Source of the DNA: a virus
Taxonomy: Duplodnaviria > Caudoviricetes
Reading direction: 5' to 3' (one strand)
Length of the DNA stretch: 64,000 nt
Virus record (IMG/VR): IMGVR_UViG_3300037851_000284
Span: 1 to 64,000 of that record
Shown one piece after another: positions 13,244 to 58,899 of the stretch. A model generated the notes under the pieces. That model was given only the letters and a program-made list of their open reading frames with translations, ran no database searches and was not told the origin of the DNA. The position numbers were made by a program, and so were the translations under genes. Position 1 is the first letter of the stretch. The number at the start of each line of letters is the position of its first letter.

Positions 13244-13315
13244 TCACAGAGTAGCGCCCTTAAATGGGCGTTAATGTGGCAATCTGGTTACAAGCCCAGA
13301 TAATAGGAGGCACTG

Positions 13316-20980: not shown

Positions 20981-21330
20981 GGGGCTGAACTGATTCGACT
21001 AGTGTAAAACGTATTAACCATATACGGTGGTTGGTAGGATGGCCACCATAAAATCCTACAATTTACAGACGACGATGCAGAATATGCATATCAGTTAGCT
21101 GCCTAATTGAAGGCAGCGAAAGAAATAATAAGTCTGTGATTATTATTTCTACAAACACACAGATAGGGTAACCGAACGGATATTAGAGAAGGGGACCAAA
21201 GAGACGTATATCCAACATCTTGTTATCCAAACTGTGAGAGACAAGATGAAATATTCACAGTTTAACGTATATAAGTAAAGTTAATACATGTAGCATCTAG
21301 GACGGGAGCTCAACCTCCCCAGCTCCACCA
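20981..21330 (+). ncRNA. ssrA: tmRNA; tag (A)DDDAEYAYQLAA at 21068-21106
   Basis: GGGGCTGA 5' end, cagctccACCA 3' end with G3-U pair, pk1-like stems, tag ending LAA-stop. Confidence 0.93.
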
Positions 21331-21335
21331 ACTTA

Positions 21336-21369
21336 TAAAGGGTGGAATTAAAACTTCACCCTTTTATTT
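21336..21369 (+). terminator. terminator after tmRNA
   Basis: aaagggtgg/ttcaccctttt stem plus T tract. Confidence 0.7.
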
Positions 21370-21564
21370 AATTGGCGGGAAATGCTTCACTCTTTGGAAA
21401 TTATAGGGCGTGTAAAACGAGTAAGAATGTTGACATCCCCAATCGGATTGTATCTGATTATGGGTTGCAACTTTTTTCGTGAACAAGAACACGCCTTTAC
21501 ATTGCAGCAATTATCAGCCATTTAGCAGACGTTGGCCGAAATAAATTTTTCTCTTGGGGGTTAT

Positions 21565-21765
21565 ATGGGCTATCTTGGTTCCAATGTCAACGAGGATTAT
21601 TATTCATATCAATTATTGGAAGTAGTTGCGAAGCAAATTGATGATAATGACACAGGTGATTGGAATAAGCTCCAAGATAGCCTGACCGCTGTCGTAGAAA
21701 AATTTACATCAGCCAACAAACGCATTAAGCAAGGGCTAAAGCCACATGCGAAGCGCACGTCTTAA
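21565..21765 (+). CDS. cassette 1 ORF, hypothetical
   Basis: RBS ggggg; reads through attC1. Confidence 0.6.
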   Translation: MGYLGSNVNEDYYSYQLLEVVAKQIDDNDTGDWNKLQDSLTAVVEKFTSANKRIKQGLKPHAKRTS

Positions 21766-21782
21766 TGCGTCACACGTTGGTG
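21711..21782 (+). other. attC-like site 1
   Basis: AGCCAAC; acgcattaag/cttaatgcgt; GTTGGTG. Confidence 0.85.
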
Positions 21783-21830
21783 TAAATGCCACTTGCCTTT
21801 TGAATTATAGGCGGTGGCAAAGGAGATAAA

Positions 21831-22055
21831 ATGTATAGTTTACCTATTGAAGATATGGCAATTGCCACCGCAGAACATTTTAGGAAGGCGAGTGGCACAT
21901 CCACCAACAACGCAAGGGATGCCATTGCCGCATGGGATGAATATGTTAAGTATCATCGTTCTTATAGCGGCCCTGGTTCTTTTATAGAGTCGGATGAAAA
22001 GTGTAAATATTGGTTTATTCTTGGTTATAGTGCGGCAACAGCACCCGTTGCGTAA
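21831..22055 (+). CDS. cassette 2 ORF, hypothetical
   Basis: RBS aaggag; two thirds lies inside attC2. Confidence 0.6.
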   Translation: MYSLPIEDMAIATAEHFRKASGTSTNNARDAIAAWDEYVKYHRSYSGPGSFIESDEKCKYWFILGYSAATAPVA

Positions 22056-22064
22056 ACGTTGCAC
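21902..22064 (+). other. attC-like site 2
   Basis: CACCAAC; acgcaaggg/cccgttgcgt; GTTGCAC. Confidence 0.85.
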
Positions 22065-22106
22065 GCAATAGCGGCCTGAATTTTTAAGCGCGGCGAAAGG
22101 AATAAA

Positions 22107-22472
22107 ATGAAAAAAGTAGTATCAGAATTTATCAACGAAGTCGAGCATATGCTTTCTTGTTGGGATGCCCCGTCATCACAGTCTTGGAATAGAGCATCTA
22201 AGTTATTCGAGGAAGCAAGAAAAGAAATCGCCGCGCAATGTGGTACTCAGGCCGCTACAGTAGCTGCCGTTCCGTCAGCCGCGCAACACGGCCAGCCTGA
22301 AATTTGCCAGCACGCCGAATTGCTCTATTCGCGTTGTAAGTGCACTATTAAAAATTCAATTAACTCCGAAATGTATACTTGCGATGGTAAAGGTCAATAT
22401 ACGGTTGTAAAAAATCTCGGTTACGAATACAGTTACCAGTGCGGTAAAAGTGCTGGTAAACTTCAGGCGTAG
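22107..22472 (+). CDS. cassette 3 ORF, Cys-rich C-terminus
   Basis: RBS aagga; reads through attC3. Confidence 0.65.
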   Translation: MKKVVSEFINEVEHMLSCWDAPSSQSWNRASKLFEEARKEIAAQCGTQAATVAAVPSAAQHGQPEICQHAELLYSRCKCTIKNSINSEMYTCDGKGQYTVVKNLGYEYSYQCGKSAGKLQA

Positions 22473-22484
22473 CCGGCGTTAGCG
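22281..22484 (+). other. attC-like site 3
   Basis: GCGCAAC; cggccagcctgaaatttgccagcac/gtgctggtaaacttcaggcgtagccg; GTTAGCG. Confidence 0.85.
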
Positions 22485-22521
22485 GCAATACCGCCGAGTC
22501 TTAACTTATAGGAGTTCGCCG

Positions 22522-22788
22522 ATGAGTGCAAACGAATCTTTTGAAGCCTTCGCCGAAAGGTTTTATAAAAAATATGGCTTTTTGCCTTTAGGCAAAGATG
22601 ACCCGTGCCGACCTTCTGCCGAAACAATTCTTGCCCGTTTAGGTGAGACATTCGGCGAACTCGAACGGGCGGAATCGGCGGTACGTGCCGCTAACAGGCC
22701 AAGTACGCCATGCTCTGCTTGTGGTCGTGACATGGAATGCCCTAACGGTTGTCAAGCTACGCATCGTAGCGGCATTGTTTTAATGTAG
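22522..22788 (+). CDS. cassette 4 ORF, CxxC...CxxxC tail
   Basis: RBS aggag. Confidence 0.65.
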   Translation: MSANESFEAFAERFYKKYGFLPLGKDDPCRPSAETILARLGETFGELERAESAVRAANRPSTPCSACGRDMECPNGCQATHRSGIVLM

Positions 22789-22818
22789 CAGCACGGCGCA
22801 CTTTGTCAACCGTTGGTG
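22689..22818 (+). other. attC-like site 4
   Basis: CGCTAAC; ggccaagtacgccatgct/agcacggcgcactttgtc; GTTGGTG. Confidence 0.8.
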
Positions 22819-22873
22819 GAAATGCCGTGCCGAGTCTTTGTACTTAGGTGCGGCTTTTTAAAAAGGGGATTTT

Positions 22874-23080
22874 ATGGCTTATTCACCGTTTGAGGAATCA
22901 CAAGAGTATCACGATAGCGTGGCTGGCCGCACAGTAAAAAAGGAGTCGGCACAGCACATACACCAACACGGCCAGCTTGCAATGCCTGGCATTTGTCCAG
23001 ATTGTAACCGTTATCTATTATCGTGTACCCGTCCCGGTGTATTACAGTGTGATGATTTTAAGTCGGCACTGCAAGCGTAG
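22874..23080 (+). CDS. cassette 5 ORF, Cys-rich tail
   Basis: RBS agggga. Confidence 0.65.
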   Translation: MAYSPFEESQEYHDSVAGRTVKKESAQHIHQHGQLAMPGICPDCNRYLLSCTRPGVLQCDDFKSALQA

Positions 23081-23095
23081 CCGGGAACGTTGTAA
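22961..23095 (+). other. attC-like site 5
   Basis: CACCAAC; cggccagcttgca/tgcaagcgtagccg; GTTGTAA. Confidence 0.85.
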
Positions 23096-23143
23096 GCCAT
23101 TGCTGCCCGGCTTTTAAAATATAGGCGCGGCGAAAGGAAAAAT

Positions 23144-23368
23144 ATGTCTCGACATTTTATTAATATGGAATCATGGTTTCCTATCATAATTCAATATGAC
23201 ACAGGAGAAATTTTTAAGTGTAATTCTCCATCAGAAATTATAAATGGTAAATCGTTTCGTGTTTTAGATACAAGATATGCCGCGCATGACATTAAGGAAG
23301 CCGGGCAGAACGGGCTTACAACAACCGTATGCCAAAATGCGGCTGACACTAAGGAATCGGGATTGTAG
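23144..23368 (+). CDS. cassette 6 ORF, hypothetical
   Basis: RBS aagga. Confidence 0.65.
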   Translation: MSRHFINMESWFPIIIQYDTGEIFKCNSPSEIINGKSFRVLDTRYAAHDIKEAGQNGLTTTVCQNAADTKESGL

Positions 23369-23398
23369 GCCGCACTTCGGCATACTCTTCCGTTGTTT
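23316..23398 (+). other. attC-like site 6
   Basis: TTACAAC; gtatgccaaaatgcggc/gccgcacttcggcatac; GTTGTTT. Confidence 0.85.
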
Positions 23399-23434
23399 GC
23401 AATTTCGCTCTTAAATTTATTATAGGAGTTTACC

Positions 23435-23717
23435 ATGACAAATGAGGTTGCTGTACGAAAAATGGAACAATATTTTGAAGGGGCATTGCTGAATCGTGAA
23501 GTTGTGGAAGCATGGCAAACTCTGAAAGCCGCTGTACTCGCTCAACAGACAAACAACAGCGTTAGTGCGCCATGTGAAATATGTAAGTATTCAAAAGACA
23601 AACAACAGCGTTAGTGCGCCATGTGAAATATGTAAGTATTCAAATGAAGCTGCTGATATGTACCCATGTGAGGATTGTTGCCATTGTGGTAACGACCATT
23701 TCACACAGCGCACGTAA
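23435..23717 (+). pseudogene. cassette 7 ORF frameshifted by a 49-bp tandem duplication
   Basis: RBS aggag; stops at 23614; without the duplication it would read ...PCEICKYSNEAADMYPCEDCCHCG...QRT-stop at 23717. Confidence 0.65.
23547..23644 (+). repeat. 49-bp perfect tandem duplication of the R''/L'' half of attC7
   Basis: agacaaacaacagcgttagtgcgccatgtgaaatatgtaagtattcaaa x2. Confidence 0.95.
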
Positions 23718-23731
23718 CGCAAACGTTGCAC
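23551..23731 (+). other. attC-like site 7
   Basis: AAACAAC (x2); gcgttagtgcgc/gcgcacgtaacgc; GTTGCAC. Confidence 0.8.
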
Positions 23732-23772
23732 GCAATAGCCGGTTGCAAACTTTATTGAAAGGGCGGTTTCTA

Positions 23773-24069
23773 ATGTCCAAAGCTAATACGTTGCCACCTA
23801 CTGAGATTTATGATGTTTTACATAAAGCTGAAGCGGTTAATATTATTATTCCAATGTCTGTTGATAAGTGGTGGAGAATAGAAACCGCCATAAATCAAGG
23901 AGCGCAACCGGCTACAGTAGCTGCCGGTGAACCGTCAGCCGTGCAACAGCTAAAGGCTGAAATTGCCGCAATTGCCGATAGATTACAGGGGTTCAATGAC
24001 TGTCCAGATGGTGGTTTTAACGACATTCAGGATTATATCAACCGCTTGCAGCAATTATCAGCCGTTTAG
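23773..24069 (+). CDS. cassette 8 ORF, hypothetical
   Basis: start MSKANT after aaggg; reads through attC8. Confidence 0.65.
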   Translation: MSKANTLPPTEIYDVLHKAEAVNIIIPMSVDKWWRIETAINQGAQPATVAAGEPSAVQQLKAEIAAIADRLQGFNDCPDGGFNDIQDYINRLQQLSAV

Positions 24070-24081
24070 CAGACGTTGGAG
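23941..24081 (+). other. attC-like site 8
   Basis: GTGCAAC; gctaaaggctgaaattgc/gcaattatcagccgtttagc; GTTGGAG. Confidence 0.85.
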
Positions 24082-24086
24082 GCAAT

Positions 24087-24392
24087 ATGGAGAATCTTGA
24101 AATTATGTGCGCCGCCGATGGACCAGCGAAATGCAGTTTCGGGCCGTGGCGTGGAACTCGCGAAGAAGGCTGGTGCGATTTTTTCAACATGAAACAGCCG
24201 TATCGTTTGCCTCCGGGCAAGGTTTGTAAATATGCTGATGGCAAGGAATCTGTAGCGGCGGCGCAAAACATTGCGGATATTCGCCATACAGCCTCCAACA
24301 GGCAAAGGGATGCCATGCCTCAAATAGAACTTGACTTTGGTGGTGTCTTCGATGGGTTCAGTGTTCAAAGCGACGCTGATCCAGGTTTGTAA
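24087..24392 (+). CDS. cassette 9 ORF, hypothetical
   Basis: RBS ggagg is part of the R' box. Confidence 0.65.
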   Translation: MENLEIMCAADGPAKCSFGPWRGTREEGWCDFFNMKQPYRLPPGKVCKYADGKESVAAAQNIADIRHTASNRQRDAMPQIELDFGGVFDGFSVQSDADPGL

Positions 24393-24423
24393 GGGCACGG
24401 CACCCGTTTGCCGGACGTTAGCG
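24293..24423 (+). other. attC-like site 9
   Basis: CTCCAAC; ggcaaagggatgcc/ggcacccgtttgcc; GTTAGCG. Confidence 0.85.
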
Positions 24424-24479
24424 GCAATTAGCTCGGCGGCCATTTAATAGGCCGGGCGCAATTCAAAGGAGCAAACAGT

Positions 24480-24680
24480 ATGCGTCTTGAAGATGCTATT
24501 GATAAGTGCCATGTAAGGTCGGCGGTCTATCGCAAGTCAAATCCGAGTGTGCGGTACTGGAAAAATAATTCGCAGTCAATCCTTGAGCGCGTGCCAGATG
24601 AAGACCGCCTTGCAATGGATTGGGAGGAGCATGACCCACGCGACGAAGATGACGGGTCTTTGTTCATGTTCAACGACTAA
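24480..24680 (+). CDS. cassette 10 ORF, hypothetical (stops before its attC)
   Basis: RBS aaggag. Confidence 0.7.
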   Translation: MRLEDAIDKCHVRSAVYRKSNPSVRYWKNNSQSILERVPDEDRLAMDWEEHDPRDEDDGSLFMFND

Positions 24681-24719
24681 GAGCGCCCGGCAGCATAATA
24701 GGAGCGCCGAGCCAACAGC

Positions 24720-24795
24720 CGCTAACACCTGCATGGTGGCTCGATGACTCGCGCAAATGCCGAAGCGGCACTTCACCATGCAGGGAACGTAAGAA
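24720..24795 (+). other. attC-like site 10 with damaged R'
   Basis: CGCTAAC; cctgcatggtg/caccatgcagg; R' reads gtaagaa, consistent with a 3-nt loss from gttgtaagaaataaa (compare 26888). Confidence 0.7.
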
Positions 24796-24938
24796 ATAAA
24801 GGTTGCTATGCTCATTGGATGTGCCAGCTACTACGAGTCCAGTACGGTGCACCGTAGACTGATACCGTCTTCATGTAGCCTTGTTGGGCACGGCAACCGA
24901 TTATCAAACGTTGCAATTTGTAAATCTTTGGAGGTTAT

Positions 24939-25001
24939 ATGCCCGGCGAAATCAAACCGTGTCCGTTCTGTGGCAGCGTCGAAGCTGGTATGCAGTCATA
25001 A
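24939..25001 (+). pseudogene. truncated Lar-like KPCPFCG fragment in remnant cassette
   Basis: RBS ggagg; MPGEIKPCPFCGS then early stop. Confidence 0.4.
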
Positions 25002-25237
25002 CGGCCAGCGTGCGTTGGTCAAACGTTGTAAGTTCGCTTCGCATATTTTCCGCTCTTTTAATTTCTGGGCGCATTGATAGCACAATCGAGTGTGATTATC
25101 GGTGAGGTTGGATAACAGAGTGCGTCTGCCAACCAATAATAATGCCCCGCTCGGCCCGTACCTATCCGATGGTCGTGGGACTGGCAACAGTGTAATCGGG
25201 CCAGTGCGCCATTTGATATTGTAGAGCGAAAAATACT

Positions 25238-25305
25238 ATACAACAGCCAAAGTATGTTCGCTTCGCAAATTGTTTCACAACTTCATACTTTGGCACATGT
25301 TGAAT
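25238..25305 (+). other. attC-like site (cassette starting 25025)
   Basis: ATACAAC; gccaaagtatg/catactttggc; GTTGAAT. Confidence 0.8.
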
Positions 25306-25319
25306 TGGAGGAGGTTGCT

Positions 25320-25571
25320 ATGTGGAATCATTCAGAGGGTTTGCCACTAAGAGATTTTTTCGCTACGGAAATACTCAAGAGGCTTATGTTGCGTTATAGG
25401 CAGCCAGGATACTCAGATCATGCCGCTATCAACGAAGCGTATCAGTTAGCTGATTATATGGTGGAGTGTCGGAAGTCCGCAACTGCAAAAACAGCGGAAT
25501 CGAGCCAACATCCACCAACAGCACCATGCCAAAACACCATAGGAAATTATGGTTGTGAAAATATGTTATAA
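25320..25571 (+). CDS. cassette ORF, LRD(F/Y)FA...AY..AD.M family phage protein
   Basis: RBS ggagg; recurrent phage motif. Confidence 0.65.
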   Translation: MWNHSEGLPLRDFFATEILKRLMLRYRQPGYSDHAAINEAYQLADYMVECRKSATAKTAESSQHPPTAPCQNTIGNYGCENML

Positions 25572-25601
25572 TGGCGCATCAGCATATCGCAAACGTTGGC
25601 T
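25513..25601 (+). other. imperfect/hybrid attC-like site
   Basis: CACCAAC and aaacGTTGGCT present but L arms pair poorly. Confidence 0.5.
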
Positions 25602-25704
25602 TTTTGAGTTATAGGTCGCATAAGAAAGGAAAATATGAAGTCTTGGATGATTAGAACGGATCATATACTTATGAACACGCGTTCGTATACCAATACTCAG
25701 TAGA

Positions 25705-25956
25705 ATGGAATATCTAATGGAATCAGAAGAACAACGCAAATTATATGAAAAAGAAACTGGGAAACATTGGTTGAACACATTTTCTTGTTTTGGTCCGTCT
25801 GTTGAGTATGTAGAATGGTTGGAAGACAAAATTGCTACACAACAATACGACGCCATACCATGTAATCAGCACGGAAAACAGTCATCGGTTATATCGGTGT
25901 GTCCTACTGGAAAATTTGAATGTGGCCTATCTCCGTGTATGATTACACGAAGTTAG
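25705..25956 (+). CDS. last cassette ORF, hypothetical
   Basis: EKETG...YVEWLE; QQ at R''-like ACACAAC; Cys-rich tail. Confidence 0.55.
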   Translation: MEYLMESEEQRKLYEKETGKHWLNTFSCFGPSVEYVEWLEDKIATQQYDAIPCNQHGKQSSVISVCPTGKFECGLSPCMITRS

Positions 25957-26105
25957 TGGAGAATAAGTACATGAAAATTCTACGTCGAACTTCTTATAGT
26001 CCTATCTAGTGTTTGTACTATAGGTTTAATACTATTTGGTATATTTTACATCACAGTATCTCTAGATGGCAAAAGCAAAAATCTTAATAAAGATAAATAT
26101 AATAA

Positions 26106-26814: not shown

Positions 26815-27036
26815 TTTATTTATAATGAATATTATCAAAAAAAGAAAATGTGCCGTTGGATGAAGTATATACTTTTATATGCACATAGTTGTAAGAAATA
26901 AACGTGTTCCTCAAAAATGTTCAGCGCGGGACGGATTATTGATGATGCCGAAGCAGGGTTTGTCGGACATTTTTACCCCAAACGTCTCACCGAATTATAA
27001 ACCGCGCCTATCAAATTCAAAGAACACGTTTATTTC

Positions 27037-27095
27037 TTACAACAACCGTGTTACGCAAGCCCAAAGTGGCCAGCGCAACACGGTGAACGTTGTGC
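27037..27095 (+). other. 59-bp attC-like site
   Basis: TTACAAC; accgtgttacgc/gcgcaacacggt; GTTGTGC. Confidence 0.88.
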
Positions 27096-27130
27096 AAAAG
27101 TTTTAACGCTTTGAAATTGTAGGAGCAGCG

Positions 27131-27403
27131 ATGAAAACGAAAGAAGAATTGATATTTCAGGCTTTAGGTGCAGCGTCAATGTGTTGGACTGGTGCGCCGT
27201 CAGGTACGTTTGATATAAACAGGTGTAAACAGATAGGTGACGAACTAATCGCCGCCCTGGAAAATGCGGAGGCGTTAAAACCTTCGCACAACAGCGCCAG
27301 CCTGTTATGTGATGACTGTATACATAGTCATGGAAATTATTGCCTGCTGGGTGTTAATCACTGTATTCGTGCGGCAGAAGATTTTTACACACGAAAGGCA
27401 TAG
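27131..27403 (+). CDS. array-2 cassette ORF, Cys-rich tail
   Basis: RBS aggag; reads through attC. Confidence 0.7.
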   Translation: MKTKEELIFQALGAASMCWTGAPSGTFDINRCKQIGDELIAALENAEALKPSHNSASLLCDDCIHSHGNYCLLGVNHCIRAAEDFYTRKA

Positions 27404-27414
27404 CCGCGTTGTAG
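27286..27414 (+). other. attC-like site
   Basis: GCACAAC; gccagcct/aggcatagc; GTTGTAG. Confidence 0.7.
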
Positions 27415-57765: not shown

Positions 57766-58899
57766 ATGTCATTAAGCAAGGAAAAGAAGAAGGCATTACA
57801 GAAGCTAAGAGATAGTTTTTTAAAAGACAATAAGCTAGACCCAGAGAAAACCAAGATGGGGTTTCTAGATGAAAATGAAAATATTGGTAAAATAGAAAGG
57901 CTTCCCACTGGATTAATAGGATTTGATGTATTAACTGGTGGTGGTTGGGTGAAGGGTAAGATTAATCAGCTAGTTGGTGGAGAATCAGCAGGTAAAACTA
58001 CCAAACTATTAAAGTCAATAGCATACTGGCAGGATAATCTAAAAGACTTCGTAGCTGCATATATACCAGCAGAGAAGAACTTTGATCGAGAATGGGCTAC
58101 TGCCCAAGGATGTAAGGAAGATAGTACTTGGATTTATGAACCAAGATTAGCCGAGGAAAACCTAGATTTCGTAATGAAGTGCGCAGATGATAATAGTGGA
58201 GTAGATTGTCTTATTATAGATACTCTACAAGCTTTATCATCGGCAAAAGAAGTATATAAAGGTAAAAAGGCAGACGGAACCCCAGCAGATAAAGAACGTT
58301 CGGTGAATGATGATACAATGGCCTTGTTGCCAAGGCTATATTCCCAGTTTTTAAGAATGTATACTTCTAAAGCCTCTGACACTTTAACTTTGATTCTTGC
58401 ATCTCAAGTCAGAACGGATATAACATCCATGGCAAGGGACAAGGAAAAAGAAACCGGAGGTAATGCATTAAGGCATTACAATGTATTAAACGTTAAGATG
58501 ACTCGTAAGGGAGATAGCGCATTCCCAGTAAAAGAGGGCGAGAGAGCCCCACCTAATTCATATGCTGTGCAATTAACAATCACAAAATCCAAGGTGAAAA
58601 ATAGATACAAAGGAAACAAGTTATTGATGTATTTTTATCATGGATCCTTTGACCATAGGTTTAACGTTATTTGTATAGCTAGAGACCTTGGATTATGGGA
58701 TGGCAAGCATCTTGAATATGAAGTTAATGGAGAAAAAAAGGAATTCAAAGCTAGGGGTTTGAAAGAGGCCATCGAAAAGATGCCTCCAGAAGCTGTAATG
58801 TACCTAGAACCTCTACTAACCGATGCTTACACAAACTTAGTAATGAACTATATTCCCTCAGCAGACAATGATATTGACGAAGAGGATGGAGCATTATAG
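57766..58899 (+). CDS. recA: RecA/UvsX recombinase
   Basis: PTGLIGFD..TGGG, GGESAGKTT, IIDT, SQVR, GGNAL.HY. Confidence 0.92.
   Translation: MSLSKEKKKALQKLRDSFLKDNKLDPEKTKMGFLDENENIGKIERLPTGLIGFDVLTGGGWVKGKINQLVGGESAGKTTKLLKSIAYWQDNLKDFVAAYIPAEKNFDREWATAQGCKEDSTWIYEPRLAEENLDFVMKCADDNSGVDCLIIDTLQALSSAKEVYKGKKADGTPADKERSVNDDTMALLPRLYSQFLRMYTSKASDTLTLILASQVRTDITSMARDKEKETGGNALRHYNVLNVKMTRKGDSAFPVKEGERAPPNSYAVQLTITKSKVKNRYKGNKLLMYFYHGSFDHRFNVICIARDLGLWDGKHLEYEVNGEKKEFKARGLKEAIEKMPPEAVMYLEPLLTDAYTNLVMNYIPSADNDIDEEDGAL

Follow-up and report, generated by a model that had tools for sequence, protein, structure and literature searches.

What is the unit of exchange in an array of small phage genes that look like mosaics of one another? 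The question is raised by a 64,000-nucleotide (nt) stretch of viral DNA (hereafter, the window) that forms the first 64 kb of one 219,054-bp IMG/VR virus record, IMGVR_UViG_3300037851_000284, assigned to the Caudoviricetes. The window carries Array 1 (21372..25960), a run of about 15 small-gene units, all on the + strand, whose boundaries read (A)CG|TTG. An earlier note on this DNA had described the units as integron-type cassettes and proposed that leader, N-terminal open reading frame (ORF) and attachment-site (attC) body recombine independently of one another. The analysis presented here supports mosaicism with a different anatomy, in which each unit consists of two hairpin modules that meet inside the gene. 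Units keep the numbers given to them in the earlier note, and their limits were drawn by hand.

Each unit contains two long-range stems. In most units where a stem can be recognised, stem A joins the first ~22 nt, which open with GTTG or GTTA, to a complementary block inside the unit whose last bases are CAAC or TAAC (arms A and A'). Its loop comprises the 5' untranslated region, including the ribosome-binding site, together with the start codon and the N-terminal domain. In stem B, an arm that opens 1-2 nt past the CAAC (B) pairs with the tail of the unit (B'), which stops 4-5 nt before the next G|TT; the loop encodes the C-terminal domain, in many cases rich in Cys, and as a rule also contains the stop codon. 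Module A therefore denotes the segment from the boundary G|TTG to the internal CAAC, and module B the segment from CAAC to the next G|TTG. GTT is invariant at 46/46 boundaries, and YAAC stands 1-2 nt ahead of every B arm. Unit 2 (21777..22058, +) illustrates the layout, with arm A at 21776-21799, the ORF at 21831-22055, A' with its CAAC end at 21885-21908, B at 21910-21932 and B' at ~22031-22053.

Across 19 units on 5 contigs, stem A follows a common plan even though its sequence differs among the units: pairing covers positions 1-7 (7-9 pairs) and 12-21, an A.A mismatch predominates at position 10, and an A.C mismatch stands at position 11 in 17 of the 19. Pairing of stem A is broken or weak in a few units (3, 7 and 8). 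The A' arms of units 3 and 8, and likewise that of one unit of a related contig (L035), hold an extra insert of ~22 nt; the idea that the insert of units 3 and 8 forms a side hairpin was discarded, as it folds no better than shuffled sequences (z = -0.15 to -0.42).

Several observations indicate that the arms are partners. Scored for complementarity, stem A reached 28.5 with its own partner and 11.1 (standard deviation 3) between different units, and stem B reached 23.8 and 11.4 (standard deviation 3), respectively; the A' arm of unit n against the head of unit n+1 scored 11.8, which is background. Ungapped 22-nt stems with at least 18 pairs number 8 in the 6-kb array region, and none occurs in the 219-kb genome outside Array 1 and a second small cluster of the same type. 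When whole units were folded as single-stranded DNA, unit 2 yielded exactly the two hairpins (z = -5.1) and unit 9 recovered both of them (z = -4.7), with no shuffle as good in either case.

Covariation provides further evidence and comes from the family of unit 4 (22479..22812, +; A 22478-22500, ORF 22522-22788, A' 22672-22695, B-module 22696-22811). Here the head, which is non-coding, and a coding block ~190 nt from it change in concert: pairing holds in 93.7% of cells, against 30-46% in slid controls, and 7 of 21 pairs have double changes, values that 0 of 500 shuffles attained. The hexamer that closes the stem beside GTT/AAC is the most variable part of the module, with an identity of 0.52-0.56 compared with 0.62 at third codon positions and 0.83 in the remaining non-coding head, and is still complementary. 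Furthermore, one A' arm shared by units 2 and 5 is translated in a different frame in each. The arms are thus selected for pairing as nucleic acid, not as protein.

Stems of this kind might act primarily in the sense transcript, as sites for RNase III or other processing or in long-range control of translation or stability, and mosaicism would then be a by-product. With ~22 bp and an internal loop they look like substrates of RNase III, a loop always contains the Shine-Dalgarno sequence and the start codon, and the unit-4 family has a few G.T pairs on the top strand. We nonetheless consider a purely RNA-level role highly unlikely. Across the B stems there are 32 A.C mismatches, which are G.T on the bottom strand, versus 4 top-strand G.T pairs, and in 20 of 25 units the B hairpin is more stable when formed by the bottom strand; this bottom-strand bias argues against a sense-RNA structure and for folded DNA. 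Additionally, one arm of each stem lies within the ORF, where double-strand cleavage would destroy the message, and the invariant GTTG and CAAC, together with breaks in homology exactly at the stem bases, point to a process at the DNA level. Strand stability was also tried as a criterion for attC membership and was dropped, since control attC sites of Vibrio type have no consistent bias of this kind.

The sequence sharing listed in the earlier note is present in full: a repeat search and short-word BLAST recovered every block behind its four claims, and pairwise alignments of the cassettes consist of identity islands between unalignable flanks. Units 3 (22059..22478, +; A 22058-22080, ORF 22107-22472, A' with the ~22-nt insert 22246-22287, B 22289-22313, B' ~22450-22475) and 8 (23726..24075, +; A 23725-23750, ORF 23773-24069, A' with the unit-3-type insert 23904-23947, B 23949-23971, B' 24046-24070) have a common start, identical at 14/14 nt, and a common block of 38 nt (22254-22288 and 23911-23948; 87% identity, 16-nt exact core). 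Their N-termini are unrelated as far as this can be tested, the proteins aligning only across the residues of the shared block, and a profile of the unit-8 N-terminal domain did not detect unit 3 (hhalign probability 0.06%). Unit 5 (22813..23089, +; A 22812-22845, ORF 22874-23080, A' 22934-22967, B 22969-22986, B' ~23065-23083) shares with unit 3 an exact 13-nt block just past CAAC and a 17-nt tail at 88% identity. Between unit 2 and unit 9 (24076..24417, +; A 24075-24095, ORF 24087-24392, A' 24279-24299, B 24301-24319, B' ~24394-24412), the common parts are a 29-nt block after CAAC (79% identity, 12-nt exact core) and an exact 9-nt tail block. Finally, a remnant 3' arm (B') of a unit 0 at 21502..21531 (+) repeats the tail of unit 8 (24046-24075) almost exactly, matching it at 96.7% across 30 nt (E = 1.7e-10); no B arm matching it was found in unit 0. 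A chance origin of these blocks is excluded, because the matches occupy corresponding places in the units and involve both arms of a given stem. Exact-pattern scans of IMG/VR for the 17-nt shared start (3 matches) and the 16-nt shared block (30 matches) returned nothing with flanking similarity, which corresponds to the chance level.

Within the array, stem types occur in free combination. Unit 3 has the stem-A type of unit 8 and the stem-B type of unit 5; unit 5 in turn has its stem-A type in common with unit 2 and its stem-B type with unit 3. Unit 2 pairs the stem-A type of unit 5 with the stem-B type of unit 9, and unit 8 the stem-A type of unit 3 with the stem-B type of the remnant unit 0. 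Where one arm of a stem is shared between units, the other arm is often shared too, and arms may be kept around unrelated loops, as in units 3 and 8, in unit 10 and a unit of contig L037, and in unit 1 and a unit of contig L039. Several relatives of unit 4 likewise keep the B arms though their C-terminal domains differ.

Independent recombination, as the earlier note had proposed it, therefore holds for the parts before and after CAAC and fails for a canonical attC cassette made of three freely moving parts. The leader and the block ahead of the presumed R'' box, which it had treated as separate modules, in fact pair with each other as the arms of a single 22-bp stem, so that they necessarily move and co-vary together. 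What is exchanged is one or the other of two hairpin modules bounded by GTTG and CAAC, at sites that lack several features of canonical attC.

The same breakpoints recur between genomes. Seven relatives of the unit-4 protein were found in public assemblies, six of which share residues 1-57 at ~70-90% identity and then continue into different C-termini, the divergence beginning after the asparagine encoded by the junction AAC. The unit-4 A-module occurs in six other metagenomic contigs, joined to at least six different C-terminal modules. The seventh relative, P0009, has the reverse composition, with a unit-7-like N-terminus and the unit-4 C-terminus. At the DNA level, homology to contigs L036, L037, L038, L039 and L042/L043 starts at or near G|TT and ends 1-11 nt from CAAC, and the homology of L035 to unit 4 comprises the B-module only, beginning at CAAC and stopping 6 nt short of the following G|TT. 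The source sample also contains a second contig, 21 kb long and about twice as deep as this phage, in which the unit-4 B-module (22701-22798) is the sole match and follows an A' arm of the unit-2/5 type. As the cassette context of this related B-module differs there, the same freshwater sample contains at least one further array-bearing genome.

Comparison of 30 curated units yielded 25 pairs with one or more module parts in common at a level above a calibrated cutoff: 13 share A parts only, 10 share B parts only, and 2 share both. Modules A and B thus reassort independently, within the array as well as between unrelated phage genomes. The arrays of L035, L036 and L037 lie in different gene contexts and have a GC (guanine plus cytosine) content above that of their flanks, and the cassette pool is mobile between backbones. 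The unit-4 N-terminal domain is under purifying selection, with a ratio of nonsynonymous to synonymous substitution rates (dN/dS) of 0.06-0.19; these are therefore real genes whose halves are recombined in frame.

A profile of the unit-4 N-terminus detected nothing among viral contigs and gave one match among metagenome contigs, the 1.25-kb contig L038. In bacterial genomes it matched an acetyltransferase-like gene of a Vicingaceae genome (L044), and this match was set aside. The resemblance involves unit-4 residues ~13-26 (22558-22600), FYKKYGFLPLG, and the C-terminal motif of that gene, and it is probably due to chance.

How could half-genes be exchanged at such positions? Our favoured explanation, to which we lean without great confidence, is that the two-hairpin modules are exchanged by structure-guided recombination on folded single strands, at both stem bases. 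The descriptive part of this statement is secure; the mechanism is what we infer. Folded single-stranded DNA would be recognised by structure-specific recombination, integron-like in its logic, and every gene would offer two usable crossover points, one per stem base. The enzyme would be supplied in trans, by the host or a co-infecting element, and not encoded by the phage. Low strand selectivity could permit top-strand cleavage at AAC as the route to the second crossover. The outcome, which does not depend on the mechanism, is in-frame shuffling of the N- and C-terminal halves of small proteins. A bolder proposal, which we advance only tentatively and regard as rather unlikely, is that freshwater phages carry an undescribed cassette system with folded-DNA junctions both between and inside genes, mobile half-genes and a structure-specific recombinase able to act on either strand and hence at either stem base. 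If true, such a system would be a combinatorial generator of small two-domain proteins, each with an N-terminal domain and often a Cys-rich C-terminal tail.

A number of observations count against recombination guided by structure. The 219-kb record, ~95% complete according to CheckV, encodes no tyrosine or serine recombinase, Y1/HUH transposase, IS110-type enzyme or reverse transcriptase; it contains no Phage_integrase match at E <= 1 and no IntI, and no recombinase was found in the examined stretches around the other arrays. The A stems have no clear strand bias. In the unit-9 family, both halves have stayed together in 4 of 4 relatives. Arms retained around unrelated loops fit homology-driven crossovers inside the arms better than crossovers at GTTG and CAAC only. 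The related arrays come from 6 contigs, a small sample, and this must be considered together with the hand-set unit limits. Neither excised circles nor precise deletions occur among the assembled contigs, which cannot show rare ones, and three samples, again as assembled contigs, have the same junctions. Low-depth pieces of the same phage from two other freshwater studies are identical to the record and span the 2/3, 5/6 and 12/13 junctions, which indicates that array order is stable among these samples.

Two further observations were set aside. The joints 21749>24294 and 27110>27265 in the source sample are each carried by one contig with a shorter side of 21-23 nt, which is too weak, and the partial cover of the stretch in runs X2 and X3 is explained by a depth of 2-4x and has no bearing on content.

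The arms could alternatively be short portable homologies combined with replication-pausing hairpins, at which UvsX-type machinery or template switching swaps the contents, in the manner of the promoter-early stem-loop (PeSL) cassettes of T4-type phages. The phage has no site-specific recombinase, and the sole recombination enzyme found in the record is encoded by a RecA/UvsX-like gene (57766..58899, +; PF00154, 92.3 bits). Units 3 and 8, unit 10 against L037, and the B arms of the unit-4 relatives all have arms kept around unrelated loops, as crossovers within the arms would leave them. Unit 7 (23393..23725, +; B' ~23698-23720) contains a 49-bp tandem duplication at 23542-23639 (98% identical) that copies the CAAC junction and the B arm and splits the ORF. 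Since the 49-nt unitig has a depth of 50.6 in the source run, about twice the 22.7 of its flanks, the duplication is probably real, and it looks like slippage at a hairpin arm. PeSL-mediated shuffling is, moreover, documented (PMC2839356).

Exchange by homology or copy choice is hence a possibility to be taken seriously, even if we doubt that it is the explanation. It leaves the complementarity between arm and partner, the conserved GTTG and CAAC, and the fixed positions of the mismatches unexplained, and the shared arms measure just 13-40 nt. There is no enrichment of the promoters and terminators expected of PeSLs: a scan for sigma-70-type promoters, outside which phage-specific promoters fall, returned 17 sites versus 15.7 +/- 4.0 in shuffles, none consistently placed, and terminator-like sites numbered 6 versus 5.9 expected. 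Half of the junctions, moreover, lie inside ORFs, which is not the case for PeSLs. The sequence TATAGG was also considered as a candidate phage promoter and discarded, given that it has no genome-wide enrichment and overlaps the ribosome-binding site in several units.

The remaining units vary the same layout. Unit 6 (23090..23392, +) has arm A at 23089-23113, the ORF at 23144-23368, A' at 23292-23322, B at 23327-23348 and B' at ~23369-23385. In unit 10 (24418..24791, +), with A at 24417-24438 and A' at 24705-24726, the ORF (24480-24680) stops before A', and a compact B hairpin of ~66 nt extends to 24791. The 3' part of the array, 24792-25595, is degenerate; its boundary at 24791 reads GTA and not GTT. 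It includes a 115-nt mini-unit with a 20-codon ORF at 24911-25025, and a compact hairpin site of ~60 nt lies at 25238-25305, within what had at first resembled a single long unit. The second small cluster of the same unit type (26888..27408, +) consists of unit V1, whose A stem is perfect with 22/22 pairs (26888 / 27043), and unit V2 (27089-27408, +).

The N-terminal 45 amino acids of unit 8 (23773-23907) belong to a widespread phage domain of ~42 residues, with ~50 cluster representatives. Its motif is of the form PPxEIYDVLHxAE...LP..VD.WW..ET, and the domain occurs alone, in tandem copies or with varied tails; it is unannotated and has no Pfam family. In another viral contig it also occurs as a free-standing gene without arms. 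Most cassette proteins are without relatives or a family: the cassette ORFs matched no Pfam or PHROG family, and the unit-3 protein has no homologues.

Array 1 begins at ~21372, ~40 nt past a transfer-messenger RNA (tmRNA) gene (20981..21330, +; Rfam RF00023, 74.8 bits) that lies directly upstream of it, with a hairpin at 21337-21364 following the gene; ARAGORN made no call at 20981-21330. The GC content of the array is 0.41-0.52, compared with ~33% for the genome. In addition to the tmRNA gene, 20 transfer RNA (tRNA) genes are located in the window, and a type-P5 twister ribozyme match is found in the tRNA-rich region at 13245-13299 (+; RF02684, 51.6 bits versus a gathering threshold of 37.6). 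A blastn search against the INPHARED phages returned no DNA relatives of the array or its flank, and L034, a distant relative of the flanking gene, comes without an array.

Among known systems, two resemble this array in what they do to proteins. Rickettsia palindromic elements and MITE-like palindromes (those resembling miniature inverted-repeat transposable elements) insert palindromic DNA that is translated within the host protein, as here. The phage units differ from them in forming ordered arrays, in carrying whole domains with start or stop signals, and in having invariant GTTG and CAAC ends. Shufflons and phage invertible segments (Rci, Gin, Cin) alter the C-terminal part of a protein through segments flanked by inverted repeats. 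Here, in contrast, no invertase gene is present and the variation consists of replacement, not inversion. Inversion of the shufflon type was considered and rejected: of 9 units, 7 have B-modules that, once inverted, meet a stop after at most 20 codons, so that a shufflon-like model fails, and tyrosine and serine recombinases are lacking.

The stems themselves invite comparison with integrons and with clusters of attC sites lacking integron integrases (CALINs). As in both, the units are co-oriented and contain a single gene, and at the end of each stands an imperfect hairpin with AAC...GTT as its closing bases. Pairing between the start of a unit and the inverse core of that same unit reaches 7-9 of 9 positions, compared with 1-8 (mostly 4-7) for the next unit; sequence is free and pairing conserved, and the composition is unlike that of the carrier genome. 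As in a CALIN, the carrier needs no integrase. Phage attC clusters, including those of virulent phages, have been reported, with several sites recombined by IntI1 (Qi et al. 2023, PMC9892861). An ordinary phage-borne attC cluster, served by the IntI of a host with crossover only at G|TT, would interpret the shared arms as attC families. It would account for the AAC...GTT that closes every B hairpin, for the GTT at all boundaries, for the complementary cassette starts and for three compact sites of 60-75 nt; similar attC sites beside unrelated ORFs are, furthermore, normal in chromosomal integrons.

Of the explanations weighed, we nevertheless give this one the least credence and hold it to be very improbable. 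Integron attC sites have neither a second 22-bp stem around the 5' half of the gene nor protein-coding loops, and here most loops are 100-150 nt of coding sequence and the 22-bp complementarity includes conserved mismatches. Exchange is not confined to G|TT: homology also breaks at the internal CAAC, a second exchange point that canonical bottom-strand recombination would not produce. According to Nivina et al. 2016 (PMC5027507), recombination of the top strand of attC would place the cut at the AAC in the inverse core. The R box pairs at only 4-7 of 9 positions in the array context, and no IntI was found.

The same script was applied to 8 genuine attC sites of Vibrio type, taken from an integron that a phage carries (L045), and this control sharpens the difference. 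Of 25 units, 15 have the extra bases on the 3' arm, 2 have them on the 5' arm and 8 have equal arms, and the spacers average 1.7 versus 4.9 nt, the longer being on the 3' arm. In the control sites, the extra bases lie on the 5' arm in 8 of 8 and the spacers are equal. The asymmetry of bulges and spacers is thus the mirror image of canonical attC relative to the genes. The strict GTTRRRY motif does not discriminate between the two, fitting at 3 of 46 boundaries here and at only 2 of 16 in the genuine Vibrio-type sites.

The two hairpin modules, exchanged independently of each other, go beyond known integron cassettes. How integron cassettes originate, and how attC sites become attached to genes, is a long-standing open question. 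It is touched here from three sides: the same arms surround unrelated coding sequences, a phage domain exists both with and without arms, and exchange points lie within genes. The family offers tangible material for the study of how cassettes arise and how domains are shuffled, and points to a route for the diversification of small accessory phage proteins that integron finders and gene-level comparison miss.

In logic, the closest analogue is the PeSL, a mobile regulatory cassette of T4-type phages (Arbiol et al. 2010, PMC2839356; PMC4122927). Both systems reside in large phages of lytic type with UvsX-like recombination; in both, small ORFan genes of a hyperplastic region are flanked by short, conserved motifs with structure, and genes are replaced between related phages at a repeated motif. 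The PeSL is, however, a local stem-loop, whereas the motifs described here are complementary pairs set 100-500 nt apart, and half of their junctions fall inside genes, in frame.

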